Shown piece by piece: positions 5,192 through 21,198 of a stretch of 44,256 nucleotides of DNA. Under the pieces are notes generated by a model. The model did no database searches. It saw only the letters and a list, made by a program, of their open reading frames with translations, and was not told the origin of the DNA. Origin of the DNA: an uncultured bacterium (GTDB lineage: Bacteria; Gemmatimonadota; Gemmatimonadetes; Gemmatimonadales; Gemmatimonadaceae). Both the position numbers and the translations under genes were made by a program. Positions within the stretch are counted from its first letter, which is position 1; every line of letters starts with the position of its first letter. The stretch is from positions 1 to 44,256 of the forward strand of contig CAXBQP010000023.1 of assembly GCA_963978095.1 (NCBI GenBank), in the 5' to 3' direction.

Positions 5192-5785
5192 GTGAAGGTC
5201 ATCGTCGGCCTCGGGAACCCGGGGCGCGAATATGCCGACACCCGGCACAACGTCGGCTGGTGGGTCATCGACCTGCTAGCCGACGTTTGGCGTTTCGACG
5301 GCTGGAAGAAGGACGGCCACGCCCTCGTGTCGAATGGCGTGGTCGGCAACATCAAGGTGCGGCTCGTCAAGCCGCAGACGTACATGAACCTGAGCGGCGA
5401 GGCGTTGCACCACTACCGGCGCCGCCCCTTCTGGTCGGCCAGCAGCGACCTGCTCGTCGTCGTCGACGAGGTCGCCCTGCCGGTGGGCCGTTTCCGCTTC
5501 CGCGCCAAAGGGTCCGCCGGCGGCCATAACGGGCTCAAGAGCATCGAACAGCACTTGCACACCCAGGAGTACGGACGCTTGCGCATCGGCGTCGCGCCGG
5601 CAGAGCCGGAGCGACAGATCGGCGTGCTGCGAGACTACGTGCTCGGCACGTTCGGAAAGATCGAGGCCGCGGAGATCCGGGCGCTGTTCCCGACGCTGGT
5701 CACCGCGATCGAGCTGTGGCTCCACGAGGGGATGGCGGTCACCATGAATCGATTCCCGGGGAAGGCGACGGACGGCTCGCCGTGA
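5192..5785 (+). CDS. pth: Peptidyl-tRNA hydrolase
   Basis: VGLGNPG, TRHNVG, KPQTYMNLSG and GGHNGLKSI motifs. Confidence 0.98.
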   Translation: MKVIVGLGNPGREYADTRHNVGWWVIDLLADVWRFDGWKKDGHALVSNGVVGNIKVRLVKPQTYMNLSGEALHHYRRRPFWSASSDLLVVVDEVALPVGRFRFRAKGSAGGHNGLKSIEQHLHTQEYGRLRIGVAPAEPERQIGVLRDYVLGTFGKIEAAEIRALFPTLVTAIELWLHEGMAVTMNRFPGKATDGSP

Positions 5786-7623
5786 GCGCGGCGCCGCTCC
5801 CGATGCGCATGCGCGGACCGGGCGGACTCTTGCGTGTTCCTCCGGAAGCCTCGTGGATGTCTCCGCTGCAGCGTGCGCACCGGAACGCGCTCGAGGCATC
5901 CAATGCCGCACGGGAGCTCACATTTCGCGCGGCGATCGATCGCTCGATGGCCGAGATCGCGGCCGATCCGTCCGCCGTCGCGCCGTATCGTCGTCTCGCG
6001 CGTCAGCTGCGGGACACCGGCCAAGCGGATGAGGCGCTCGACGTGCTCCGCCAGGGGATGCGCGATGCCGTGGTCGACGCTGCGTTCGTGCGTCGCGTCG
6101 CCGTCGATCTGCTCGATGCCGGCCATGGCGAGGAGGCGTTGGCGGTGCTCGACGCCACCGCGCCGCGCTTCCCGCTCGATGCCGAGCTGGTGCTGCTGCG
6201 TCGACTGGCCTTTCCGTCGGTCTTCCGCGATTCTGGGGAACCCGCGCGTTGGCGCGAGCGCTTGTCGCGCGGACTCGCCTCGCTGTCGCTGGACGACCCA
6301 GAGCTGGCCGCACTTCCGCACGCGGCGTTGATCGACGCGACGCTTCGCTTCAACCCCTACTACGTCGACTATCTCGGCGATGTGTCGCGTGATCTGCATG
6401 ACGCGTGGGGCGACTGGCTCGCGCGCCTGCTCTCGGCCTCCGCATCCACGGGCGCCGCACCAATGGAGGGTGCCACACCCGCGCCACGCGCCGCGGACAG
6501 CCGCATCCGGATCGGCATCGTCGGCGACACGTTGCGCGCGCACGTCGTCAGTGAGTTGTTCGTCGGCTGGGCGACTGCCCTGGACCGCACCCGGTTCGAC
6601 CTCCGCTGCTATGCGTTGCACACCGAAAGCGACCGGATGTCGCAGGCCTTCGAGGCCGCCTCCAGCCGCTTCGTGCAGTCGCCCGACACGGCCGTACTCC
6701 GCGCGGCGATCGTGGAGGATCAGCCGCGAGTGCTCCTGTACCTCGCCGTCGGGATGTCGTCGGCCGTCCTCGAACTCGCCGCGCAGCGCCTCGCCCCCGT
6801 GCAATGCGCGGCGTGGGGACACCCACGCACGACGGGACTGCCGACGATCGACTATTTCCTCGGCAGCGACGCGATGGAACCGCCCGGGGCCGCCGCGCAC
6901 TATCGCGAACGCCTCGTACGCCTCCCGGGGCTCGGTACGACGTTCCGGCTCCCGGATGCACTGCGGCCACTGCACATCAATCGGCGGGCGGACTTCGGGC
7001 TGTGCGATGATGACGTCGTGCTGCTGTGCGCGCAGAACGTCAGCAAGTTCCTGCCCTCCTTTGACACCGTGCTGATCGACATCGCACGACGCGTCCCGGC
7101 GAGCCGATTCGTGTTCGCCGTCGGTCATCAGCGCGGCGGCACCGTCCTGCGGCAACGCATCGCCCGGGCGTTCGAGCACGCGGGACTCGACTGGAGCCGT
7201 CACGAAGTCGCGCTCCCGGAACTCACCCCGCTCGAGTTCGACAACTTGGTGTGCGTCGCCGACGCCCTCCTCGACCCCGACGGCTGGTCGGCGGGCTACA
7301 CCGCCGTCAATGCGGTGGCCTTCGGCCTTCCCATCGTCTGTCGGCCAGGGGCGGTCGCCCGCACGCGCCAGAGCGCGGCGATCTTGACCCTGCTCGGCGA
7401 GACCCGAACGATCGCCGCGTCCGCATCCGCCTACGTCGAGATCGTCGAACGGATCGCGCACGACACCGCGTTCGTCGCCTCGGTGCGCGCGTCCCTGACC
7501 GCTCCTGAGAGGCGGGAACGTCTCGCGAGCGACCCCCGGGCGCAGGCGGCGCTGCAGGCGTTCCTCGAGTCCGCCGTCTCCCGCGTCACGGCCGATGCCG
7601 ACGCCTGCGCGCCCGCCGTTTAG
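5782..7623 (+). CDS. TPR + GT41 (O-GlcNAc transferase/SPINDLY/HMW1C-like) glycosyltransferase
   Basis: Short TPR-like N-terminus; RIRIGIVGDTLRAHVV, RLAPVQCAAWGHPRTTGLPTIDYFL, QNVSKF and ADALLDP...TAVNAVAFGLPIV motifs. The GTG at 5782 overlaps the pth stop; exact start uncertain. Confidence 0.85.
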   Translation: MSAAPLPMRMRGPGGLLRVPPEASWMSPLQRAHRNALEASNAARELTFRAAIDRSMAEIAADPSAVAPYRRLARQLRDTGQADEALDVLRQGMRDAVVDAAFVRRVAVDLLDAGHGEEALAVLDATAPRFPLDAELVLLRRLAFPSVFRDSGEPARWRERLSRGLASLSLDDPELAALPHAALIDATLRFNPYYVDYLGDVSRDLHDAWGDWLARLLSASASTGAAPMEGATPAPRAADSRIRIGIVGDTLRAHVVSELFVGWATALDRTRFDLRCYALHTESDRMSQAFEAASSRFVQSPDTAVLRAAIVEDQPRVLLYLAVGMSSAVLELAAQRLAPVQCAAWGHPRTTGLPTIDYFLGSDAMEPPGAAAHYRERLVRLPGLGTTFRLPDALRPLHINRRADFGLCDDDVVLLCAQNVSKFLPSFDTVLIDIARRVPASRFVFAVGHQRGGTVLRQRIARAFEHAGLDWSRHEVALPELTPLEFDNLVCVADALLDPDGWSAGYTAVNAVAFGLPIVCRPGAVARTRQSAAILTLLGETRTIAASASAYVEIVERIAHDTAFVASVRASLTAPERRERLASDPRAQAALQAFLESAVSRVTADADACAPAV

Positions 7624-7688
7624 ATTTCCCAGGTTGCCCCTGCGTCCTCTCCGCGGCTCGACCCGCTTCACCTCCTGATCCCCACGCA

Positions 7689-8789
7689 ATGCTGAAGCTC
7701 GGCATCGTCGGTCTGCCGAATGTCGGCAAGTCCACGCTGTTCAACGCCCTCACGGCTGCCAAAGCCGATGCGGCGAACTATCCGTTCTGCACCGTCGAGC
7801 CGAACGTCGGCATGGTCAACGTCCCGGATCCGCGCCTCGACCGACTGGCCGAGATCGTGCATCCGGAGCGCACGCTGCCGGCGGCGGTCCAGTTCGTCGA
7901 CATCGCCGGTTTGGTGAAAGGCGCGGCGGAAGGCGAAGGACTCGGCAACAAGTTCCTGGCCAACATCCGCGAGTGCGACGCCATCGTGCATGTCGTCCGC
8001 TGCTTCGATGACCCGGATGTCACGCACGTGATGGGTGGCGTGGACCCGGTGCGCGACCGCGAAGTCATCGAGTTCGAACTGGCCCTCGCTGACCTCGGAG
8101 CGGTCGAGAAGCGTCTCGACAAATCGAAGCGCGCGGCGCGTACCGGTGACAAAGACGCCGCCAGTGAACTGCCGACGCTCGAAAAAGCGCACGCGGCACT
8201 CGCCGAGGGCAAAGCGCTGTGGCATGTCACGCTCTCCGCCGAGGACACGGCATTGTTGCGTCCGCTGCAGTTGCTCACGGTGAAGCCGGTGCTGTATGCC
8301 GCGAATGTCACCGACGCCGAACTGGCCGGGGACGAAGGCACATATCTGACCGCGCTGCGCGCCGCGATCGCGGGATCGAACGAACAGGCCGAGGTGGTGC
8401 CGTTCTCCGCGCGCATCGAGGCCGAGCTCGCGGAGCTCGCACCCGAGGACCGCGCCGACTTCCTGGCGTCCATCGGCCTGGAGTCTGCCGGGCTCGATCG
8501 ACTCATTCGCGCTGGCTACCACCTGCTCGGGCTGCAGACGTATTTCACGGCGGGGGAGAAGGAAGTGCGCGCGTGGACGATCCATCGCGGGGACACCGGT
8601 CCGAAGGCGGCCGGTGTGATCCATACTGACTTCGAGCGTGGATTCATCCGCGCGGAGACCGTGTCGTACGCCGACTTCGTGACGCACGATGGGTGGAAAG
8701 GCGCGCGCGAGAAGGGAGCGGTGCGGTCGGAGGGCAAGGAGTACGTCGTGCAGGACGGAGACGTCCTGCTGTTCCGCTTCAACGTCTGA
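7689..8789 (+). CDS. ychF: Redox-regulated ATPase YchF
   Basis: GIVGLPNVGKST, ANYPFCTVEPN, DIAGLVKGA, FLANIRE and a C-terminal TGS domain. Confidence 0.98.
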   Translation: MLKLGIVGLPNVGKSTLFNALTAAKADAANYPFCTVEPNVGMVNVPDPRLDRLAEIVHPERTLPAAVQFVDIAGLVKGAAEGEGLGNKFLANIRECDAIVHVVRCFDDPDVTHVMGGVDPVRDREVIEFELALADLGAVEKRLDKSKRAARTGDKDAASELPTLEKAHAALAEGKALWHVTLSAEDTALLRPLQLLTVKPVLYAANVTDAELAGDEGTYLTALRAAIAGSNEQAEVVPFSARIEAELAELAPEDRADFLASIGLESAGLDRLIRAGYHLLGLQTYFTAGEKEVRAWTIHRGDTGPKAAGVIHTDFERGFIRAETVSYADFVTHDGWKGAREKGAVRSEGKEYVVQDGDVLLFRFNV

Positions 8790-9987
8790 CCGGCCCACTC
8801 CCGGTGGGGCTCGACGCGAGCCCCACCGCGCGCAGGACGAGCCGGATCCAGCGCAGCGGCCAGTAGAGCGCGGTGGCACCCCGTGGCAGCCGGATCCATT
8901 CCGCCTCGCGCGGTGTCGGGACGGCCGCCGCGACCGCCAGCAGTCGCGCCTGATCCCACACCGAATCCTGCGTACGGAGCAGCCAGCGACGCGACCGTGG
9001 GATCAGCTCGTTGCTCGCAACGATCGCCCGCGCGAGTTCCGAGGCAAGGGAGCCCGCCGCGCGGTCTGCCTCGACCGCGTCCGCGATCGCGCGCGGCAGC
9101 GGTGTGTCCAGGAGCAGGTGCGCAAGGGCACAGCCGGTGAGCACCGCCCGGCACCCATGGACGTGGTCGCGCGACAACTCGAGTAGCCCGTTGGCGTCGA
9201 GCGACCGATCCCGCAGGAGCGCCCGCACCACGAGCAGCCATTCGAGCGTTCGCCAGTGGTGGCGCGCGCCATGCAGCAGCTGCAACAGCAGCTCGTGCTC
9301 GAGCGGTACGATCGGCAGCGCGACCCCCGCGATCGACAGGGGCTCTGCGGCCTCGAGCAGGTCACGCAGCGGCGGGTTCCACGGCAGCGTGCGATTGGAG
9401 AATCGCCAATGCAGGTCGACATCACGAGCGACGGGATCCTCGAGGTGCCCGAACGGCAGTTGTGCGTAGGCCGCATAGATGACGGTGGCACCGCGAAGCG
9501 TCGCATCCGCGCGAAGACCGTACCCCGCGCCGCGCAACACGTCGGTCGCACGCGCGAGTTGCGCGCGTTCCACCACGAGGTCGATGTCGATGCTCGCGCG
9601 CATCGTGCAGTCACCATACGCCCGCTGGGACAACAGCGGGCCCTTGTACACGAGCGCGCGCACGCCGGCATCGGTCAGACGTCGGTGCAACGCCGCCGTT
9701 TCGTGCACCGCGCGCCAGGCGCCAGCGGCGATCTCCAGCCGCTCGTGGAGGAGGGACTGCATCGTCGGTGCCGGCACCTGTACCCCGCTCCATGCCACGG
9801 CGTCCACGACGAACGGCAGCATCCGGTGTGCGCGTGCCACGTGCTGCAGGCGTGCCCAATCCCCGAGGGCGGCCGCCTCCCGCCGGACTCGCTCGTGCGT
9901 TGATGAGTCGCCCTGCTCACAACACGCCGCCGCGAGCAGGAGCCGCATCTCGGGCGTGGCCAGCTCGCGCAGGATTGGCTCAGTCAT
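8779..9987 (-). CDS. Nucleotidyltransferase family protein (NTP_transf_5-like), lasso cluster tailoring enzyme
   Basis: YKGPLLSQRAYGDCTMRASIDIDLVV (KG...DxD) and DVDLHW motifs. ATG 9987 overlaps the kinase stop. Confidence 0.85.
   Translation of the reverse strand: MTEPILRELATPEMRLLLAAACCEQGDSSTHERVRREAAALGDWARLQHVARAHRMLPFVVDAVAWSGVQVPAPTMQSLLHERLEIAAGAWRAVHETAALHRRLTDAGVRALVYKGPLLSQRAYGDCTMRASIDIDLVVERAQLARATDVLRGAGYGLRADATLRGATVIYAAYAQLPFGHLEDPVARDVDLHWRFSNRTLPWNPPLRDLLEAAEPLSIAGVALPIVPLEHELLLQLLHGARHHWRTLEWLLVVRALLRDRSLDANGLLELSRDHVHGCRAVLTGCALAHLLLDTPLPRAIADAVEADRAAGSLASELARAIVASNELIPRSRRWLLRTQDSVWDQARLLAVAAAVPTPREAEWIRLPRGATALYWPLRWIRLVLRAVGLASSPTGSGPVRR
8802..8828. terminator. Perfect 12-bp hairpin at the convergent ychF / nucleotidyltransferase junction
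   Basis: CGGTGGGGCTCG-acg-CGAGCCCCACCG; no clear U-tract. Confidence 0.5.
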
Positions 9988-11002
9988 CGAGCGCGCGCCG
10001 GATGGCGTGCACGGCATGTGGCAACTGCTCGTAGCCCGGCCCGAACTCGATCCGATATACCGGGAGTCGTTCCACCAGCCGGCTGAGTTGCGCGAGACTG
10101 CGAGCGGCTTGTGTTCCAGCGAGGAGATGGGCGCTCGACGTGTGGGGCAAGAGCATCAGCAGCGCTTCGGGCGCCGCCACCCGGACCACTTCCGGCGCGA
10201 CCGGATCGACGTGCGGCGTCACGCGAAAGAGCGCGCGGAGCGGTATCGGGTCCTGCACCGCGCCCTGGACCGCGCCCTCGACCGCGCCCTGGAACCGGCG
10301 CGACGCGGCGGGCATCGGCAGCATGTGCTTGTCCCAGGTCGGACCGACCAATCCGAACGTCGCCGGTTCCCAGTCCGGCGGTCGCCCCAACACGGCGCCT
10401 ACGCCGCGCACGGACTGCGAGGCAAGGCGCAGATGATCCCCGCCGCGCCACGTCACCACGCCGCCATCGCGCTCACCGATCGCCAGGACGTCATCGGTGC
10501 AGAGCGCAGCACCGGTGGCACAGCATGCGGCCGCGAGCGTGGATTTTCCCGCACCGGACGGCCCCACGAATCCGATGGCCCGCCCCTGAATGATCACTCC
10601 GCTCGCATGGAGCGCGAGTGTCCCCCGGAGCCGCAACACATATCCGAGGACGGATCCCGCGACATAGCCCACAACGTCGTCCACACTGTGGGCCTGCTCC
10701 CAGCGACACCAGACGTTGGCACCGTCAGCGTCAATGAAGAACTCCGCGCCGTCCGGCAGCTGAAACCGAGTCCCGGCCCCTCCCGCCACCCACCCGATCT
10801 CCAGCGCTGCCGGGAGCGCGGTATCGGCCGGCTCGCGCCGCAGGATCGTGGCAGGGTCGATCGGCGCGTCACGCCACACCGGCAGCGCGTGGAAGTGCAC
10901 ACGCACGGTCGCGTGCTCCAGCGGCGGAATCGGGAACAATCCGGGAATGGGGTGGTCGGACGCGAGGGTCACCCCACTCGCGAAGTACCAGTGACCGCGC
11001 AC
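9980..11002 (-). CDS. HPr-kinase-like P-loop kinase (lasso peptide kinase type)
   Basis: LHASGV, Walker A GPSGAGKST and TDDVLAI motifs; lies directly downstream of the precursor. Confidence 0.88.
   Translation of the reverse strand: MRGHWYFASGVTLASDHPIPGLFPIPPLEHATVRVHFHALPVWRDAPIDPATILRREPADTALPAALEIGWVAGGAGTRFQLPDGAEFFIDADGANVWCRWEQAHSVDDVVGYVAGSVLGYVLRLRGTLALHASGVIIQGRAIGFVGPSGAGKSTLAAACCATGAALCTDDVLAIGERDGGVVTWRGGDHLRLASQSVRGVGAVLGRPPDWEPATFGLVGPTWDKHMLPMPAASRRFQGAVEGAVQGAVQDPIPLRALFRVTPHVDPVAPEVVRVAAPEALLMLLPHTSSAHLLAGTQAARSLAQLSRLVERLPVYRIEFGPGYEQLPHAVHAIRRALDD
10256..10291 (-). repeat. 3 x 12-nt in-frame tandem repeat inside the kinase (QGAV-EGAV-QGAV)
   Basis: (c/g)accgcgccct(g/c) x3 on the + strand. 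Confidence 0.8.
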
Positions 11003-11033
11003 CGTCGTCGAACGCTGGCCGACGCCCGCCGCG

Positions 11034-11201
11034 TCAACCGGAGCGCGAACTCGTCTTGGTTGAAGAGTCCTGCGGCTTCGACGTTTTAGTGGAGAGCGTA
11101 CGCGTCAGATCCGTCAGCGAACCGAACTCGCGCAGCACCGGCGCGCTGTACCGAGCAAGGGTACGCTGCGACTCGGGGCTGCCACCAATCGACTGGGTCA
11201 T
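11034..11201 (-). CDS. Lasso peptide precursor (A), 55 aa; not in the ORF track
   Basis: Manual translation: MTQSIGGSPESQRTLARYSAPVLREFGSLTDLTRTLSTKTSKPQDSSTKTSSRSG*. Contains the lasso leader motif YxxPxLxxxGxxxxxT (YSAPVLREFGSLTDLT) and sits within a B1/B2/C cluster. Confidence 0.92.
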   Translation of the reverse strand: MTQSIGGSPESQRTLARYSAPVLREFGSLTDLTRTLSTKTSKPQDSSTKTSSRSG

Positions 11202-11274
11202 TGTGCGATTCTGCGTGACGGGAGGAATGCGACGCTTTCGGAATATAGTGCGTCCGCGCCCAGCGCGGGGACTA

Positions 11275-12450
11275 TCAGGTCACCGAGGATCCGGGGCCGA
11301 CGCGCGGCGACACATCGGCCAGCTCAAGATACGCGGCAATGCGGCGCATCGCCGAGCGGCGATCGGCGAACAGATCCGGCATCTCGGCGTAAATCGTGTC
11401 AATGATCCGAGCGACCGTGTGCTCCCCAGTCGCGAGCGACGCCAGACGAGCGAACAGTGCCGCGTCTCGTGTGATGACGGGCAGGTGCGCCGTGTCCCGG
11501 CGCAGCATCTCCTGGGGGAACGTCGTGAGTTGCTCGAGCGTGGAATGCGTCACTCGGGTTCCGATTCGGCCGGAACCCGCGGGCGGCGTCACGTCCACCG
11601 ACCACCGCACCACGTACTGATCGTCCAGCGCCCTGAACCGCAGCGAGGCCGATACGTCGTCACCCGTACGCACGTCGATCGGTGTGCGCAACGGCAGCAG
11701 CTGACGCCCCCAAGGGCGGACGGGCACCCGCGGGCTGTTGCTGATCCATTCCCCGTTCGCCAGCAGGGCGTCGAACCACACCGCGATGCCATCGAGCACG
11801 CCGTCTCGCTCCACCGAAAACTGGAGATCGGCGTGCGCATCCGTCGGAGTCTCGCGCTGGTGCTCGAGGGTCCACCACGCCGTTTCCGCCGCGAGCAAGT
11901 TCTCCGGTCGGAGCTTGAGTGCTCCACGGGGCTGGACCGTGGTCCTCCGCAACACCGGTGCACAATCGAGGCCGAAGATTGGCGTGGACGCATCGGACAC
12001 CCTCGTTCCGCCGCAGTCCACTGGGGCGGCGTACAGCACGTCACGGACGAACAACTCTCGCACGCCATCGACGCACAGACGCCGGCGCGCGTCGTTCATG
12101 GAGGCGATCGCCGTACCGACGAGGGTGTGGGCGCCGCGCAGATCACCGACGAGGACGGTCGCTTTCCGTGGGAGGGTGACGGCTTCGACGGTCTCGGTGA
12201 TCCACGTGATGCGGTCGCCCACACCGTGCCGGGCGGCCAACTCCGGGCCGATCGCCAGCAATGGACTCGGTTCGATCGCATACACGTGGTCCGCGCCCGA
12301 CTGTGCGGCAATGACCGCGAAGTGGCCGGCGCCCGCGCCCACCTCGAGCACCACGTCGTCGGCCGACACCATGTGCCGCAACGCACGGGCCATGGGTGCC
12401 CCCCGGCCCGGATCCGCGAACATGGACTGGAGATGTTCGAGACTATACAT
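11275..12450 (-). CDS. Class I SAM-dependent methyltransferase, PRMT-like, with C-terminal helical extension
   Basis: MFAD.GR...ARAL N-terminal helix, motif I VLEVGAGAG, post-I VYAIE, VGDLRG, and a beta-barrel segment DGIAVWFDALL...ISNSP...RPWGRQLLPL resembling the PRMT THW-loop region. ATG 12450 is 5 nt after the cyclase stop. Confidence 0.82.
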   Translation of the reverse strand: MYSLEHLQSMFADPGRGAPMARALRHMVSADDVVLEVGAGAGHFAVIAAQSGADHVYAIEPSPLLAIGPELAARHGVGDRITWITETVEAVTLPRKATVLVGDLRGAHTLVGTAIASMNDARRRLCVDGVRELFVRDVLYAAPVDCGGTRVSDASTPIFGLDCAPVLRRTTVQPRGALKLRPENLLAAETAWWTLEHQRETPTDAHADLQFSVERDGVLDGIAVWFDALLANGEWISNSPRVPVRPWGRQLLPLRTPIDVRTGDDVSASLRFRALDDQYVVRWSVDVTPPAGSGRIGTRVTHSTLEQLTTFPQEMLRRDTAHLPVITRDAALFARLASLATGEHTVARIIDTIYAEMPDLFADRRSAMRRIAAYLELADVSPRVGPGSSVT

Positions 12451-12455
12451 GCCGC

Positions 12456-14255
12456 TTACGGTATCCCTGCCCGCAACCAGTTGTCGAGTGCCAGGACACG
12501 CCACGCGTGATCGATCGCGTCCGTCGCGGTACCCGCCAGCGCCGTATTCACCTGCGCCGGGTCCACCCAGCGGCTGACTCGGTCGCTGACCGTTGGCGGA
12601 TGCGCCCCCTGCTCCGCACGCCAGGTCGCCACGATGGACGACGACGGCGTCCGGACCGGTGTCTTGGGACGACGCAACACCTCGTCCGGCAGCGTGCCGC
12701 GAAAGGCGCGACGCAGGAGTTCCTTGCGCTGCAACCACGGTGTCGTGGGAAGCGACATCACCAATCCCAGCAGCCGCAGGTCCATGAGCGGCCACGCCAC
12801 CTCGTGCCGCAGCGCCCCAAGGACGCCGAAATCAGGCTGCGTCACCATCTGGAAAAACGGATGCGTGACCCGAGCCACGGTATCCGGACGGACCAACGCC
12901 GTCATGTCATGGCATGGCAGCGGAACGGCGCGTGCGGCGGCGTCCCGCCACCGAGCCGCCAGCCACGCTGGAGCCGGCGGCTCGACCTCGGGTGGGGACC
13001 ACCACTCGCGCAGCCGCAGCCCCGTGTGCGGCTTGCGTCCACTCTGGACGGCGAACCGCGCGAGACGCGCGATGGTGCGCACGGTTCCGAACCGTCGACG
13101 CTCCTCGGCGAACGACGAGGGGAGCAGCAGCCCGTCGCCATCCTCCCCATTCAGCTGCACGCGCCCATGCGCGGCCATCGCCGCCACGATGCGCATCTCA
13201 CGTCCGTTCGAGACGGAGTTGGTGGGCTCGGGCAGTCGCTCGCGGGGGATCTCGTCGACCCGCATCCCCGAGTACCCAAAGGTCGTCACCACATGTCGTG
13301 TCCCCAGCCGCTGCGCGACACGGCGCGCCAACGGCGGTTCCGGGTCGTCCATCGCGTCCGGCCCGGCGATCGTCACCGAGGTCACGTCGACCCCCGGACG
13401 CACGCGGCGAGCGGTGGCCGTGAGACTCGGCGAATCGAGCCCGCCGGACAACGGGATCACTACCTCCGGCAGCCGCATGCGATCGGCGACCGCATCGCCA
13501 AGCACTGCATGGAACTCGGCGATCACCTCGCGGTCGGACCTCCGTGACGGCGCCGGCGACGGCGGCTGCCACCAGACGCGGCGCCGAATCGAGGGGCCGC
13601 CGAGGGCAATGCTCGACCCGGACGCGAGCCGATGGACATCCGCGAACACCGTCCGCGTGACGTCCGTGGCGTACCCGACGGCCAAGGTGGAGGCGATCCA
13701 CGCATCGTCGAGCCCGTCCGACACGTCGGGATGCGCACGCACCGCGTCGATGGACGACGATACCACGATTCCGCCGCGGATCGACGCCCAGTACACCGGG
13801 CGGATCCCCAGGGCGTCGCGCGCCACCAGTCCGCGGCCGGCGCCGGGATCCCACAGGACGAACGCATAGTCCCCCAACACGCGGGTGAGCATCTCCTCCC
13901 CCCACGCCTCCCAGGCCGCCAGCAGCAACCCCTCGTCGTCGCCGATCGCCGGCGGACGCACCCCTGCGACGCGCAGCGCCTCTCGCAGTTCGCGTTGCGC
14001 ATCCACGCGGACATTGCCGGTCAACAACACGCCGCGTGCCGATCGATGCGGACCGCACCGCGCGCCCTCGCGCGTGGTCATCAGCGCATGCACCATGGCC
14101 ACCCCACCACGGGGCGCGTCGCTGTCCCTCGGGGCGACCGTGACCGCGTTGAGGTCGTCGTGGGGGGCCCGCGCGAGTTCCGCGCGCAGGCGGGCGAGGA
14201 CGGCGGGAGCGAGCGGCGGACCGTCGACGGTGATGACCGCCGCGAAGGCGCTCAC
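12456..14255 (-). CDS. Lasso cyclase (asparagine-synthetase-like, C protein)
   Basis: GDYAFVLWD, ARDALGIRPVYW, LSGGLDS and KELLRRAFRGTLPDEVLRRPK motifs. It lacks the N-terminal catalytic Cys of glutamine-hydrolysing AsnB and is adjacent to B1/B2. Confidence 0.92.
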   Translation of the reverse strand: MSAFAAVITVDGPPLAPAVLARLRAELARAPHDDLNAVTVAPRDSDAPRGGVAMVHALMTTREGARCGPHRSARGVLLTGNVRVDAQRELREALRVAGVRPPAIGDDEGLLLAAWEAWGEEMLTRVLGDYAFVLWDPGAGRGLVARDALGIRPVYWASIRGGIVVSSSIDAVRAHPDVSDGLDDAWIASTLAVGYATDVTRTVFADVHRLASGSSIALGGPSIRRRVWWQPPSPAPSRRSDREVIAEFHAVLGDAVADRMRLPEVVIPLSGGLDSPSLTATARRVRPGVDVTSVTIAGPDAMDDPEPPLARRVAQRLGTRHVVTTFGYSGMRVDEIPRERLPEPTNSVSNGREMRIVAAMAAHGRVQLNGEDGDGLLLPSSFAEERRRFGTVRTIARLARFAVQSGRKPHTGLRLREWWSPPEVEPPAPAWLAARWRDAAARAVPLPCHDMTALVRPDTVARVTHPFFQMVTQPDFGVLGALRHEVAWPLMDLRLLGLVMSLPTTPWLQRKELLRRAFRGTLPDEVLRRPKTPVRTPSSSIVATWRAEQGAHPPTVSDRVSRWVDPAQVNTALAGTATDAIDHAWRVLALDNWLRAGIP

Positions 14256-14698
14256 GGTGCGCTGGAGTAGGCCGCCAGCGCGGCGAACCGGGCGAACTCG
14301 GCGTCACCGACGACCACCAGCCCATCGCTCTCCACCCACGCATGGGCGTCGATGGGTCGCCCGTCGCCGGCGGCGGGGGCCACGCCGATCCGGAGTACGG
14401 CCGCCACCCCTTGCGCGCGGAGCAACCATTCCGCCGCCAGCGCTTGGGGGAGGCAGGGGGCGCTCGGGAAGGTCCGGGCGGCCCGGCTCAGCGCTCGGCG
14501 CACCGCCCAGGCGTGCATCGGCGACGCCACCGCCGCCGAGCGGTGGCGTGCTGCGAGGCGTGCGTCCATCCACGCACGGATCCTCGGAAAGGGGACGAGC
14601 ACGAGTGCCATGCGGAAGACGACCAGCCACCAGACGGCGCGCCAGGACAGGGTGCGCTCCGCCGCGCTGAGCGCCGCGAGGCTACGAAGTCGGCTCAC
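14252..14698 (-). CDS. Lasso leader peptidase (B2, transglutaminase-like)
   Basis: PCLPQALA, LRIGV and AHAWVE (Cys-His catalytic motifs); GTG start at 14698. Confidence 0.93.
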   Translation of the reverse strand: MSRLRSLAALSAAERTLSWRAVWWLVVFRMALVLVPFPRIRAWMDARLAARHRSAAVASPMHAWAVRRALSRAARTFPSAPCLPQALAAEWLLRAQGVAAVLRIGVAPAAGDGRPIDAHAWVESDGLVVVGDAEFARFAALAAYSSAP

Positions 14699-14981
14699 CC
14701 ACAAGGTCGAGCAGGCCTTTGTCCGCGAGTTCGGCGCTGATCCGGAGGACATCGCGTTCCGCCGTGTCTCGGTCGACGTCGAAGGTCGCGGTGACATGGT
14801 CCACGACCGCAGCCAGCGCGACCGGCTGTTGCATCCGTCCCCAAATGGTGGCACCCACGGCATTGAGGCCGAAGTAGATGCCATCCGTCATGTGCAGGAT
14901 GACCGCTTCGCCGGAGAGTGTCGTGGAGACTTGATGCGTCGAGGCGACCACGCGCGACGAGAGAGCCAAAGGCTGGGACAT
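14682..14981 (-). CDS. PqqD-family RiPP recognition element (lasso B1)
   Basis: 99 aa; LSGEAVILHMTDGIYFGLNAVGATIW and FDVDRDTAERDV...L...GLL. Confidence 0.95.
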   Translation of the reverse strand: MSQPLALSSRVVASTHQVSTTLSGEAVILHMTDGIYFGLNAVGATIWGRMQQPVALAAVVDHVTATFDVDRDTAERDVLRISAELADKGLLDLVGEPTS

Positions 14982-15077: not shown

Positions 15078-15196
15078 GAGAGGCTGTTGATGTTCAACCA
15101 TCACGATCCAGTGCCCTCCCGGGGCCTTCGGATCACTCTCCCGCCGCGCCGGCAACCCGCGACGGGCGTTCCAGACCAAAGGGAGGATTGCCCACA

Positions 15197-15559
15197 GTGA
15201 CTCGTGCCTACGAGGCGGTGTACATCTTCGATTCTGCGCTCGAAGACGCCGCCATCAACGAAAAGATGACGAAGCACCACGCGCTCCTCGGAGCGACGGG
15301 TGAGATCGCCCTGAACCATTGGGGGCGTCGTCAGCTCGCGTACAAGATCGGCTCCAAGGAGTCGGGGTATTACATCGTCGCGAAGTTCGAGTGCGACCCC
15401 ACGGCCCTCCCCGAGTTCGAGCGATCGCTCAAGCTCGACGAGAGCGTGATCCGTTGGCTCATCTCGGTCGACGAGCACGAGCTCGGCGCCCCGCCGATGA
15501 CCGAAGAACAGCTCGCCGCCCGCGCCCGCGGCGACGATGACGACGACGACGAGGATTAA
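15197..15559 (+). CDS. rpsF: 30S ribosomal protein S6
   Basis: YEAVYIF, WGRRQLAYKI and LKLDESVIR motifs. GTG 15197 is better spaced from the GGGAGG SD than TTG 15188. Confidence 0.97.
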   Translation: MTRAYEAVYIFDSALEDAAINEKMTKHHALLGATGEIALNHWGRRQLAYKIGSKESGYYIVAKFECDPTALPEFERSLKLDESVIRWLISVDEHELGAPPMTEEQLAARARGDDDDDDED

Positions 15560-17889: not shown

Positions 17890-20800
17890 ATGTCTCGTCG
17901 CTGGATCGCCGTCGTCTCCCGCCCGTTCGCGCGGGCCGTCCTGCTGGTGGCATGCCTCGTGTCGACCGCGCTCGCACCGGATGTCGTCCGCGCACAAGGC
18001 TACTTCGGGCAGAACCAAGTCCAGTTCCAAGTGTTCCAGTGGCGCGTCTACAAGACCGAGCATTTCGACGTCCACTACTACCAGGGCATGGCGGAGGGCG
18101 CCAAGATCGCCGCCCGCATGGCGGAGCGGTCGTACGCCAGACTGTCGCGCCTCATGGGGTACACGTTCAAGGAACGGAAGCCGATCGTCGTCTTTGCCTC
18201 CCGCGGGGATTTCGCGCAGAACAACGTCACGGGGGATCTGGGCGAAGGCACCGGCGGCGTGACCGACGCGATGCATCAGCGCAACATGTTCTTCTTCGGC
18301 AGCGATCTCGCCGAAGTCGAGCATGTCATGGCGCACGAGATGGTGCACCAGTTCCAGTACGACATCATGTTCAAGGGGCGCACGGGCGGCGCGCAGCAGA
18401 TGATCGAGGGCGACAACCTGCCGCTCTGGTTCGCGGAAGGGATGGCGGAGTACCTGTCGATCGGCCCGGACCACAAGGCGACCGACGCGATCATGCGCGA
18501 CGCGGCCCTCAACGGCAATCTGCCCACGATCAAGCAGTTGAAGGATGAACCCAACCGGTTCTTCCCGTATCGCTACGGAGAATCGTTCTGGCGTTTCATC
18601 GGCCAGCGATGGGGAGACGAGATCGTCGGCGAGATCCTGCAGGCCACGGCGACGATCGGAGTGGAGCGTGGCTTCAAGCGCCATACCGGCTTCGAGCTCG
18701 ACGAACTCGGCGACGAGTGGAAGGAAACGCAACAGACGAACTATCTGCCCGCGGTCGCAACGCTCGAGCGTCCACGCAAGAACGCGCAGGCGCTGCTCAA
18801 CGAGAAGAAGACCGGCGGGATCATCCCCGTATATGTGGCACCGGCACTCTCGAGCGACGGCAAGCAGATCGCGTACATCTCCACCGGGTCGCTGTTGCGG
18901 GCGGAGGTGTTCCTCGACCTGTACCTCGCCGACGCCACGACCGGCAAGCGCACCAAGCGGCTCACGAACAGCGTGCTGAATCCCGAAACGGAGGAACTGC
19001 GCTACGTCTATTCGCAGAGCGCCTTCTCCCCCGACGGGCGCACGCTGGCCTATACCGGCATGCGCAAGGGCAAGGATGTCCTCTTTTTGCTCGACCTGCG
19101 GTCACGCGAGGTGATCCGCCGGCTCGACACCGACCTCGATGCGATGGTGGGCCCGACCTTCTCGCCGGACGGGAAGCGGATCGCGTTCAGTGGCAGCAAG
19201 GGCGGATCGACCAACATCTACGTCATCGATGCGGACGGGCGGAACCTCAAGCAACTGACGAACGGATGGTATGCCGGACTGATGCCCTCGTGGTCGCCGG
19301 ACGGCCGCAAGATCGCATTCGTCAGCGACCGCGGACCGAAGACGAACCTCGAGTTGCTCCGCTTCGGAAAGTGGGAGATCAACCTCCTCGATCTGGCGAC
19401 GGGTGCGATCGAGACCATCCCCGGTCAGGGCGGCAAGAATCTCAACCCCGCCTGGGCGCCGGACGGGAAATCGCTGGCATTCATCAGTGACCGCACCGGG
19501 ATCGCGCAGATCTTCCTGTACGATTTCGAGGCGAAGGAGCACTACCAGCTGACGCGCTACATCGGCGGCGTGCTCTCCCTGACGGAAAACAGTCCGGCCA
19601 TCACCTGGGCGCGCCAGGCGGACAAGTTGGCGTTCGTGTACTACGACAACAACGACTACACGGTGTGGTCGATCTCGAACCCGCGCCAACTCAAGAAGGA
19701 GCCGTACCGCGAACCGACGGCCACCGCCGTGGTCGCGAGCGCGGAACGTCCCCCGGTGACCGCCGAGGATTCGGCGACGGCACGTCGTGCGCAGGCGGCG
19801 ATGGCGGTGTCGGACATTGCCAAGGCCTCGAAGGATTCCGCGCTGGCCGTGCCACCCAACCCGCGTCGAGTGTCCATCTATCGCGGGGTGGGTGGGATGC
19901 GCGCGTCGGGGGAACTCCCCGCGCCGGGAAGCCCCGGCGCGACCTCGCCGGTGTCGGTGGCGGCGCTCATGGACAGTTCCTCGCTCGCCCTGCCGAGTGA
20001 CGCCAGCATCAAGGACGAGCCGTACAAGGCGGAGCTCCGCGCGGAAGCGGTGCAACGGCCGCAAGTCGGATATGCCCAGGACAACTACCAGCGGGGCGTC
20101 TACGGCGGCACCGCCATCCTCTTTGCCGACCTGCTGGGCAATCGCCAGCTGCTTGCCGGCCTCGCCATCAATGGACGGGTGGAGGAGGCGCAGGTCGCGC
20201 TCAACTACACGAACTTCTCCAATCGGCTGAACTTCTCGACCGGATTCAATCAGAGTCCATTCTACCTGTTCACCGGGTACTCGACGGATCAGGTCGGGAC
20301 CGGTCAGTACTATCAGCGTCAGTCGCTGATGCGCTACATCGTCCGGACGGCGAACTACAATGCGATCTACCCCATCAATCGCTTCACGCGATTCGAGATC
20401 GGCGCCGCCTACACGAACATCGACCGCAGCGCGATGTATCTGTCCCAGGGCATCGACTTCAACTCCGGGTACAGCACTGGGTTCTACGTCGACAGCGTGC
20501 GGGGGTTGGGGTCGTTGAACTTCGTGAACCCGGTGGCCGCGTTCGTCTCGGATAATGCGCTGCAGAGCTACACGGGGCCCATCTACGGGCACCGGTACCG
20601 CGTCGAAGTCTCCCCGTGGGTCGGCGTGCGGGACACGAAGGGTTTCGTGAACGTGCTCGCGGACCTGCGGCGCTACGATGCGATCGCGTTCAGCTTCCTG
20701 ACGCTGGCCACCCGCCTCTATGCGGACATCTCGCAGGGACCGGGCGAGAGCCTCATCCAGAAATACATCGGCGTCCCGCAGTACATCCGGGGCTACGACC

Positions 20801-21198
20801 GGGAGAACTACCTGTCGTCGAATTGCGGATCCACGAACGCCAATGACTGCAACGCCCTGATGCAACTGGTGGGCAGTCATACGTTGGTGATGAACGCGGA
20901 ACTGCGATTCCCGCTGATCCGGCGCTTCGAGCTTGGCGTGTTGCCGGTCTCCTTGCCGCCGCTGGACGGTCTGTTCTTCTACGACGCCGGCATGGCGTGG
21001 AGCTCCGGGCAGACGCTCACGGCCGCCAAGCCCGACGTGTACGATTTCAACAAGCAGCGGTTCCTGCTGCGGAGCTACGGCTACGGTCTGCGGTTGAACC
21101 TGTTCAACTTCGCGATCATTCGGTGGGATTACTCGATTCCGCTGGACTCGTTCAACCACAAGGGCTATTGGTGGTGGTCGATCGGTCAGTCGTTCTGA
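17890..21198 (+). CDS. Outer-membrane protein: zincin (MA-clan) peptidase domain + PD40/TolB-like propeller + Omp85/BamA-like barrel
   Basis: Signal peptide; HEMVH...WFAEGMAEY; repeated P(A/S)(W/F)SPDGxxIAF; YIRGY, NAELRFPL and a C-terminal Phe. Confidence 0.82.
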   Translation: MSRRWIAVVSRPFARAVLLVACLVSTALAPDVVRAQGYFGQNQVQFQVFQWRVYKTEHFDVHYYQGMAEGAKIAARMAERSYARLSRLMGYTFKERKPIVVFASRGDFAQNNVTGDLGEGTGGVTDAMHQRNMFFFGSDLAEVEHVMAHEMVHQFQYDIMFKGRTGGAQQMIEGDNLPLWFAEGMAEYLSIGPDHKATDAIMRDAALNGNLPTIKQLKDEPNRFFPYRYGESFWRFIGQRWGDEIVGEILQATATIGVERGFKRHTGFELDELGDEWKETQQTNYLPAVATLERPRKNAQALLNEKKTGGIIPVYVAPALSSDGKQIAYISTGSLLRAEVFLDLYLADATTGKRTKRLTNSVLNPETEELRYVYSQSAFSPDGRTLAYTGMRKGKDVLFLLDLRSREVIRRLDTDLDAMVGPTFSPDGKRIAFSGSKGGSTNIYVIDADGRNLKQLTNGWYAGLMPSWSPDGRKIAFVSDRGPKTNLELLRFGKWEINLLDLATGAIETIPGQGGKNLNPAWAPDGKSLAFISDRTGIAQIFLYDFEAKEHYQLTRYIGGVLSLTENSPAITWARQADKLAFVYYDNNDYTVWSISNPRQLKKEPYREPTATAVVASAERPPVTAEDSATARRAQAAMAVSDIAKASKDSALAVPPNPRRVSIYRGVGGMRASGELPAPGSPGATSPVSVAALMDSSSLALPSDASIKDEPYKAELRAEAVQRPQVGYAQDNYQRGVYGGTAILFADLLGNRQLLAGLAINGRVEEAQVALNYTNFSNRLNFSTGFNQSPFYLFTGYSTDQVGTGQYYQRQSLMRYIVRTANYNAIYPINRFTRFEIGAAYTNIDRSAMYLSQGIDFNSGYSTGFYVDSVRGLGSLNFVNPVAAFVSDNALQSYTGPIYGHRYRVEVSPWVGVRDTKGFVNVLADLRRYDAIAFSFLTLATRLYADISQGPGESLIQKYIGVPQYIRGYDRENYLSSNCGSTNANDCNALMQLVGSHTLVMNAELRFPLIRRFELGVLPVSLPPLDGLFFYDAGMAWSSGQTLTAAKPDVYDFNKQRFLLRSYGYGLRLNLFNFAIIRWDYSIPLDSFNHKGYWWWSIGQSF

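Follow-up and report, generated by a model that had tools for sequence, protein, structure and literature searches.

A lasso-type precursor from a freshwater Gemmatimonas-like bacterium with its only acidic core residue outside the usual ring spacing

The question raised by this locus is whether a short open reading frame (ORF) encodes a lasso peptide and, if so, which of its residues would close the macrolactam ring. The ORF, gene A, lies in a 44,256-nucleotide stretch of DNA from an uncultured Gemmatimonadaceae bacterium (contig CAXBQP010000023.1, assembly GCA_963978095.1; 67.8% G+C), the whole of which is referred to as the window. It begins with ATG, comprises 55 codons and runs on the minus strand from 11201 down to 11034, stop codon included; its translation, MTQSIGGSPESQRTLARYSAPVLREFGSLTDLTRTLSTKTSKPQDSSTKTSSRSG, agrees exactly with that of the first-pass annotation, which had read it from the letters alone as a lasso precursor. 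Our analysis indicates that gene A is almost certainly a genuine lasso-type precursor, and that under the standard count it fails one defining feature of the class, a ring acceptor at core position 7-9. The host is a Gemmatimonas-like bacterium of fresh water, and among the many relatives of the gene a considerable minority also place the corresponding Asp beyond this limit under the canonical count. The parts of the precursor are as follows.

11034..11201, minus strand: precursor gene A, 55 amino acids plus stop (translation, NF033521 match, homologues, synonymous-biased variants)
11100..11201, minus strand: leader, residues 1-34 (sequence)
11100-11150, minus strand: recognition motif YSAPVLREFGSLTDLTR, residues 18-34 (fits YxxPxLxxxGxxxxxTx; motif columns across 63 relatives)
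11037..11099, minus strand: core in the canonical register, residues 35-55, 21 amino acids (Thr(-2)/Tyr(-17) rule)
11067..11069, minus strand: codon of Asp45, sole acidic core residue and probable macrolactam acceptor (alignment and variant data)
11037..11045, minus strand: C-terminal Arg53-Ser54-Gly55, a copy of the family [KR][ST]x(0-3) end motif and putative phosphorylation site (role from PsmK/PadeK precedent)

The precursor as a gene

By the published leader rule, a YxxPxL motif spans positions -17 to -12 relative to the cleavage site and a Thr occupies position -2 (PMC10368454). Residues 18-34 of the precursor contain both elements, which places Thr33 at -2 and Arg34 at -1 in the canonical count. 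The same residues match NF033521, the NCBIfam model of lasso leaders, at 19.5 bits, just above its curated cut-off of 19, and similar scores were obtained for the closest homologue, from genome G020 (20.4 bits), and for the 95% identical metagenome protein P0002 (19.3 bits). Translation of the window in all six frames yields a single instance of a strict form of the motif followed by 12-32 residues and a stop codon, as compared to a mean of 0.015 instances in 200 mononucleotide shuffles, 3 of which held one. Together with a complete adjacent set of B1, B2 and C genes, these results bear out the earlier identification of the ORF as a lasso precursor.

P0002 is a 55-residue protein found on 6 contigs in a collection of predicted proteins, so gene callers do call the precursor ORF in near relatives; it differs from the window precursor by L36I, which also occurs among the metagenome variants, S8N and S52N. 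When the two closest precursors were aligned with genome contigs, the G020 contig was the only match; two metagenome-contig loci that they also matched proved to be spurious open frames and not precursors. The G020 homologue occupies the same place, between the methyltransferase and the kinase genes, and is preceded by a strong ribosome-binding site. Over residues 17-45, the codons of the two genes are identical at 12 positions, synonymous at 11 and non-synonymous at 6.

Variation among environmental sequences follows the same pattern. DNA of the precursor region is present in 10 sequencing runs of 8 aquatic or freshwater metagenome studies, and contigs from four freshwater studies revealed 8 variable sites inside the ORF (depth below 5 at all of them; 5 of the 8 recur in two or three runs). 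Six are synonymous changes at third codon positions and the other two are conservative (L36I and S52T); the probability that at least 6 of 8 sites fall at one codon position is 129/6561, or ~0.02, assuming that the sites are independent. Thr33, Thr35, Ser37 and Asp45 are invariant across the metagenome contigs examined.

Several properties would suit a rival explanation, in which the ORF arose by chance in GC-rich DNA and some other sequence encodes the true precursor: no Shine-Dalgarno sequence was found ahead of the ATG of the window precursor, its G+C content at third codon positions is only weakly raised (0.63-0.70), and the window contains many short ORFs. This explanation is close to refuted, and we consider it extremely improbable, as it would have to accommodate the chance expectation of the motif, the above-threshold NF033521 match, the G020 homologue at the same place with its strong ribosome-binding site, the bias of variation toward synonymous changes, and precursor searches that returned no second match in the same genome. 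Gene A is conserved together with its leader motif and its neighbours, and it is under coding-type constraint.

No promoter-like or terminator-like site was found in 10900-11400, and an RNA hairpin or attenuator around the precursor was rejected, as the region folds no better than its shuffles (z of -0.64 and +0.96). The 73-nucleotide spacer between the methyltransferase and precursor genes (11202-11274) shows zero differences in the covering contigs X4 and X5, as compared to the eight variable sites of the adjacent ORF. A 6-bp G+C hairpin stands directly after the methyltransferase stop codon, and its fold is likewise no better than that of shuffled sequences.

Cleavage site and ring size

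Within the core, Asp45 is position 11 in the canonical count, or position 9 when counted from Ser37; in the canonical count positions 7, 8 and 9 contain neither Asp nor Glu. The first-pass annotation had set out both registers and called each atypical, a description that holds, since each breaks one textbook rule: with Thr33 at -2, the core begins with Thr1 and has its sole acidic residue at position 11, whereas with Thr35 at -2 a nine-residue Ser37-Asp45 spacing is indeed available, at the price of a displaced leader. To judge between them, we compared the precursor with its relatives. A profile built from five precursors (E <= 0.01) drew matches from 60 of the 401 genomes in a sample of the bacterial family, spread over 20 of 77 genera, and a 58-row profile (E <= 0.001) found them in 67 of 401 phylum-sampled genomes, 42 of 93 within the bacterial family (the tally of 67 includes G047 and G565, whose sequences were left out of the analysis); these are counts from sampled genomes, and the relatives are not independent of one another. 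Searched against a library of 1.84 billion proteins, the 58-row profile returned 3510 representative proteins at E <= 0.001 and 115 at E <= 1e-10, and 148 of the best 150 library matches are single-core peptides. Three library proteins, P0003 (382 residues), P0004 (199) and P0005 (133), carry 2-5 tandem lasso leader motifs in one frame, and the C-terminal domain of P0003 resembles a self-cleaving tail-fibre chaperone.

Column counts were taken from 63 unique genome-derived precursors, which had been selected for [YW]xxPx[LV]xxxG, Thr or Ser at -2 and an Asp within core positions 7-12; most of these rows also needed either a basic-hydroxyl C-terminus or an Asp plus two small residues. In the leader, Thr(-2) is present in 63/63 and Leu(-12) in 61/63 (Pro(-14) and Gly(-8) being required by the filter), and Thr(-2) is also present in all 148 library precursors, where the regular expression left the position free and the profile had been built from Thr-bearing rows. 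In the core, position 1 is variable (A 20, T 18, K 13, S 4, R 3, others including I, V and N; 2.45 bits; the library adds M, H, Q and D), position 2 is mostly Val (42/63), position 3 is Gly in 37, Asp in 12 and Ser in 7 (1.85 bits), and position 6 is Gly in 40 and Ser in 14. A Thr at position 1, which had been treated as atypical, is present in the window precursor but is common in its family. The [KR][ST]x(0-3) end motif occurs in 61/63, a figure that is partly circular, as the motif was one of the two alternative filters.

The conserved Asp occupies core position 9 in 44 precursors, 10 in 15 and 11 in 4, the last group consisting of the window precursor, that of G020 and one of the two precursors in each of G012 and G014. 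It is followed by Gly in 50/63, it is aligned in 58/58 rows of alignment A5, and Glu occurs in 0/63 cores. In the library set Asp is at position 9 in 124/148 and at 10 in 23, in none at 11, and one peptide has no acidic residue in core positions 6-13; Asp9 is the sole acidic residue of this range in 117/148, and 7 more have an extra acidic residue at position 8 (or at both 7 and 8). Alignment with MAFFT and a comparison of entropies place the extra residues between position 6 and the Asp, leaving V2-G3-x-x-G6 in register with the leader. The oddity in ring size described earlier is therefore real, but it is a feature of the family rather than of this gene alone, as Asp10 or Asp11 is found in 19/63 precursors and Asp10 in 23/148. 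Asp45 is very probably the ring acceptor.

Given this alignment, we tentatively favor cleavage after Arg34 and a Thr35-Asp45 ring of 11 residues over a nine-residue Ser37-Asp45 ring. Four arguments from the family alignment point this way. First, Thr(-2) is invariant at a fixed distance from YxxPxL in both the genome and library sets, although the way in which each set was selected favored it. Second, the residue that would stand at -2 in the shifted register, core position 1, is variable, and it is Ala in G020; the alignment of homologous precursors that the first-pass annotation had called for thus returned an invariant Thr33 column and a variable Thr35 column, so that the shifted leader has no conserved Thr. 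Third, under the canonical count most of the family is orthodox, with Asp at position 9. Fourth, the 12 of 63 precursors with Asp at position 3 would begin with an odd first residue if the register were shifted. Moreover, cores outside the family that share its leader family have Asp at position 8 (two in G525, and others in G303, G412, G032, G057 and G127), and a shift by two residues would turn these into impossible six-residue rings, so such a shift cannot be general. Two published cases lend plausibility: for metanodin, whose Asn1 was unprecedented, mass spectrometry confirmed the start that Thr(-2) had predicted (PMC12670498), and the fusilassin enzymes have made an unnatural 10-residue ring (bioRxiv 10.1101/2020.11.25.399105, PMC8498205), which indicates that closure of a ring larger than nine residues is enzymatically feasible.

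A number of observations weigh against this reading. An 11-residue ring is without precedent: according to reviews and tools up to 2025, all natural lasso rings characterised fall within 7-9 residues (PMC9266682, PMC12214591, bioRxiv 10.1101/2020.11.25.399105), and a change of ring size by one residue usually lowers production strongly (PMC13352647, a 2026 review). The general pattern in lasso peptides is a conserved position 1, which forms the ring, with the greatest variability at positions 3-7 (bioRxiv 10.1101/2020.11.25.399105); here the pattern is reversed, core position 1 being more variable than position 3. Counted from position 3, Asp9, Asp10 and Asp11 give the allowed ring sizes of 7, 8 and 9. 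Single clusters hold both Asp10 and Asp11 precursors (G012 and G014), which would require one cyclase to make 10- and 11-residue rings, whereas the shifted count gives a combination of 8 and 9 residues, as in the caulosegnins (PMC13352647). Finally, a tail with Lys and Arg as its only large side chains is too slim for a wide ring unless it is modified, and the targets of the kinase and methyltransferase described below are putative, and the family matches of the kinase lie below the curated cut-offs.

Several of these points are the basis of the principal rival, in which B2 would cut after Leu36 to release a 19-residue product with an orthodox nine-residue Ser37-Asp45 ring and, across the family, position 3 would come first and rings would span 7-9 residues, exactly the known range. 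Beyond the better conservation of position 3, which is Gly, the classic first residue, in the majority of precursors, this position is constant within clusters whose precursors differ at position 1 (Ala or Lys in L063 and L052; Ser versus Arg in G012b and G014b). In the window precursor, Thr35-Leu36 would itself supply a Thr(-2), and a residue other than Thr at -2 does exist in kinase-linked lasso precursors (Ile(-2) in BsfA; PMC10368454). On the other hand, the shift moves the invariant Thr to -4 and the Tyr to -19, which departs from the fixed spacing of all studied leaders (PMC10368454); it leaves the would-be -2 residue unconserved, demands an Asp first residue that has no known example, and runs into the six-residue rings of the Asp8 cores, and in metanodin the Thr(-2) rule prevailed over first-residue expectations (PMC12670498). 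We consider the shifted register unlikely, though a serious competitor.

A further rival, in which a lysine side chain closes a seven-residue ring from Lys39 to Asp45, draws on the retention of Lys39 in the window and G020 precursors. The family offers no invariant Lys column (position 5: R 14, T 12, K 10; position 8: R 13, N 11, K 9; n=63), and Arg, which is found at position 5 in G012b, cannot form the bond. A side-chain ring of this kind was rejected as highly improbable.

Biosynthetic cluster and predicted maturation

Gene A is the fifth gene of a seven-gene minus-strand row made up of B1, B2, C, a methyltransferase, the precursor, an HprK-related kinase and an NTP_transf_5 protein. The row is bounded by genes on the plus strand, rpsF-rpsR-rplI from 15188 at its start and ychF at its end. 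The genes and flanks are as follows.

14682..14981, minus strand: B1, PqqD-type leader-binding protein, 99 amino acids (Pfam PqqD 63.3 bits, E 2.7e-17)
14252..14704, minus strand: B2 leader peptidase, ~150 amino acids, start uncertain (TTG 14704 or GTG 14698; NF033537 76.2 bits, cut-off 33)
12456..14255, minus strand: C, asparagine-synthetase-like lasso cyclase, 599 amino acids (Asn_synthase 93.9 bits over profile positions 2-354 of 354, plus GATase_7)
11275..12450, minus strand: methyltransferase of the protein arginine methyltransferase (PRMT) fold, 391 amino acids from ATG 12450 (phmmer against the PDB)
9980..11002, minus strand: HprK-related P-loop kinase, 340 amino acids, start uncertain (sub-cut-off family matches plus Walker A)
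8779..10017, minus strand: NTP_transf_5 'uncharacterised nucleotidyltransferase', 412 amino acids (PF14907 134.9 bits, cut-off 31.2)
7689..8789, plus strand: ychF GTPase, convergent flank marking the cluster end (YchF-GTPase_C E 1e-37)
15188..15559, plus strand: rpsF, divergent flank marking the cluster start (TIGR00166 S6 E 9.1e-18)

The three maturation genes lie on the same strand as the precursor and within 3.8 kb upstream of it. B1 scores 56.7 bits against NF033536, below that model's cut-off of 80, and C scores 145 bits against NF033535, below the model's lineage-specific cut-off. B2 also matches Transglut_core3 (73.3 bits), its Cys84 and His121 are invariant in 11 relatives, and it is the sole strong B2 match in the genome (2.98 Mb, 101 contigs). 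A predicted complex of B1, B2 and the precursor scored below a control in which B2 had been replaced, and the prediction was given no weight in either direction. No ABC (ATP-binding cassette) exporter gene, D, was found between ychF (7689-8789) and rpsF (15188). Two further minus-strand ORFs, 7668-8879 and 5635-7689, were considered as cluster genes and rejected, the first being an antisense shadow of ychF and the second that of a GT41/TPR gene (5716-7623, plus strand); by tblastn they are conserved at 45-62% and 38% identity, respectively. The ychF shadow appears in 21 of 42 related loci, indicating that the lasso cluster often adjoins ychF. Outside the cluster, 17890-21198 (plus strand) encodes a 1102-residue TolB-propeller/peptidase protein that scores 47.9 bits against the Atxe2 lasso isopeptidase model (cut-off 400), a match that probably reflects a shared propeller or peptidase fold only.

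The same 42 loci were surveyed by tblastn with the window proteins, in flanks of up to ~10 kb on each side where the contig allowed. C and the kinase each occurred in 30 loci, while NTP_transf_5 was present in 29 and the methyltransferase was present in 26. Twelve loci showed no B1, B2, C, kinase, nucleotidyltransferase or methyltransferase in these flanks (among them L055, L062, L064, L067, L072, L074, L077, L079, L080 and L081). Most of the twelve have precursors of the type T-V-G-x-R-G-R-R-D ... R-R-T-G-F/Y, often paired; these precursors either are orphans or depend on enzymes that have diverged much further.

Three genes next to the precursor encode candidate tailoring enzymes. The kinase matches TIGR04352 (E 2.1e-7; 30.4 bits, cut-off 200) and Hpr_kinase_C (E 0.0033), both below cut-off, and a profile of 12 kinase relatives finds the HPr(Ser) kinase 3tqf (E 1.2e-4) and, equally well, dephospho-CoA kinases (7.5e-5). 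Gly147, Gly152 and Lys153-Ser154-Thr155 of its Walker A motif are invariant, and the putative assignment to this family follows from the sub-threshold matches and this motif. The methyltransferase is homologous to eukaryotic PRMTs across both the S-adenosylmethionine-binding domain and the β-barrel: in phmmer searches of the PDB it matches CARM1 (E 1.6e-15 over residues 6-271), as well as PRMT6, 2, 1, 3, 5 and 7. The catalytic residues of CARM1 are the Glu pair of the double-E loop and the THW loop; in the alignment with CARM1, the methyltransferase has Asp and Gly at the two Glu positions and R-P-W at T-H-W.

These enzymes bear on how a thread could be held. The first-pass annotation had remarked that the tail has no aromatic plug and had suggested that tailoring modifications might act as the steric lock. 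The first observation is correct: the ten residues after Asp45, SSTKTSSRSG, include no aromatic residue and no Cys, and Lys49 and Arg53 are the only large side chains. The suggestion has gained a kinase and a nucleotidyltransferase gene downstream of the precursor and a methyltransferase gene upstream, as well as a published precedent (PMC6993621) that would apply by analogy. Known lasso kinases phosphorylate either Ser3, as in BsfA, or, as in paeninodin and pseudomycoidin, the Ser at the C-terminus of the precursor, and PsmN adds one or two hexoses to the phosphate (PMC6993621, PMC8498205, PMC9266682, PMC10368454). Purified pseudomycoidin without the phospho-hexose is not threaded, and the authors of that work suggest that the bulky end group acts as a lock (PMC6993621). 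By analogy, the conserved [KR][ST] end, here Arg53-Ser54-Gly55, could be the kinase site, and this end, together with the kinase and the nucleotidyltransferase, would fit a pseudomycoidin-type modification lock; the window peptide differs from a C-terminal Ser acceptor in ending Ser-Gly. The pentapeptide STKTS occurs twice in the core, at residues 37-41 and 47-51, and in the G020 homologue the first copy is intact and the second degenerate. The two copies may be repeated sites for the kinase, located in the ring and in the tail, respectively.

We envision a maturation pathway of five steps. B1 would bind the YxxPxL part of the leader. With the leader still attached, the HprK-related kinase would phosphorylate a hydroxyl in the Arg-Ser-Gly end, the NTP_transf_5 protein would extend the phosphate (with a hexose or nucleotidyl group, like PsmN), and the PRMT-fold methyltransferase would methylate some atom of the peptide. 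B2 would then cut after Arg34, at a position fixed by the invariant Thr33, and C would close the ring between the α-amine of Thr35 and the Asp45 side chain. The predicted product has 21 residues and an 11-residue macrolactam, two above any characterised lasso ring, and any retention of its short Lys/Arg-only tail in so wide a ring would depend on the bulky modification at the C-terminus. The chain as a whole, ring closure included, is offered as a tentative proposal.

The last step is where another outcome has to be weighed, namely that the peptide is matured by the cluster but is not threaded, the wide ring and slim tail holding no thread, and that the product is a branched-cyclic or linear peptide, rich in Ser and Thr and heavily phosphorylated or glycosylated. 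It would agree with the composition of the core, in which 12 of 21 residues (canonical register) are Ser or Thr and STKTS is repeated, as well as with the missing aromatic plug, the three tailoring genes around the precursor, and the branched-cyclic form of purified pseudomycoidin without its modifications (PMC6993621). The complete and conserved B1/B2/C set argues for a lasso, as does the retention of Asp-Gly, which is as expected of a ring-closing site. We regard a non-threaded product as rather improbable.

Significance and comparison with known lasso systems

In our literature search we found no natural lasso ring larger than nine residues, although off-rule precursors could be listed in the alignments that supplement PMC10368454 or in the fusilassin preprint's tables; the only 10-residue ring is that of an engineered fusilassin variant (bioRxiv 10.1101/2020.11.25.399105, PMC8498205). 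The search found no link between lasso peptides and arginine-methyltransferase-like enzymes, and the titles and abstract openings it covered announced no characterised lasso peptide from the Gemmatimonadota. It is conceivable, though we hold it with some doubt, that the Gemmatimonadaceae make natural lasso (or lasso-derived) peptides with a 10- or 11-residue macrolactam and that a phosphate-linked C-terminal lock allows ring size to drift past 7-9. If so, such a modification, by replacing bulky side chains as the lock, would let the ring exceed the accepted limit. The matter is of practical consequence, as the 7-9 rule is built into prediction tools (LassoPred rejects any sequence in which positions 7-9 hold no Asp or Glu; PMC12214591), and the rule also shapes views on how the thread becomes trapped. 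Precursors that share a leader and enzymes but differ in the position of the Asp (9, 10 or 11), in some cases inside a single cluster, form a matched natural series that could show whether the ring limit is chemical or merely historical, or else reveal the first off-register lasso peptidase.

The closest published counterpart is pseudomycoidin (psm) of Bacillus pseudomycoides (PMC6993621). Both clusters have split B1 and B2 plus C, a kinase of HprK type (putatively so in the window) and an 'uncharacterised NTP transferase', the window's PF14907 protein being likened to PsmN by the wording of the papers. The tail of pseudomycoidin lacks a plug, as that of the window peptide seems to, and its authors propose a phospho-hexose lock; the Ala1-Asp9 ring of pseudomycoidin is also the commonest pattern of the window family (Ala1 20/63, Asp9 44/63). 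Pseudomycoidin differs in its Firmicute host, its ABC exporter, its C-terminal Ser acceptor and its lack of a methyltransferase, whereas the window cluster has an Arg-Ser-Gly end, Asp11, a PRMT-fold methyltransferase and no exporter gene. Paeninodin and its kinase-linked relatives have the same split-B arrangement and an HprK homologue that acts before leader removal (PMC8498205, PMC9266682), as the putative kinase here would, but the paeninodin kinase needs a C-terminal Ser, while the window peptide ends in Gly and the hydroxyl of its family lies 0-3 residues from the end.

BsfA of Bradymonas sediminis is, like gene A, a kinase-linked precursor and breaks one leader rule, with Ile at -2; its YxxPxL motif is at -17 to -12, and its kinase, BsfK, phosphorylates Ser3 within the ring, a residue that is also Ser in the window core (PMC10368454). 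BsfA has a Gly1-Asp8 ring that is within the rule, whereas the window precursor departs from the rules in its ring spacing and has an orthodox leader. Metanodin was likewise derived from a metagenome and missed by automatic tools, and it has a non-standard first residue whose position Thr(-2) predicted; it differs in its nine-residue ring and gammaproteobacterial origin, and the available portion of PMC12670498 mentions no kinase or nucleotidyltransferase. Lastly, the fusilassin variant shows a lasso cyclase closing a ring of more than nine residues, but it is engineered, not natural, and exceeds the limit by one residue (bioRxiv 10.1101/2020.11.25.399105, PMC8498205).

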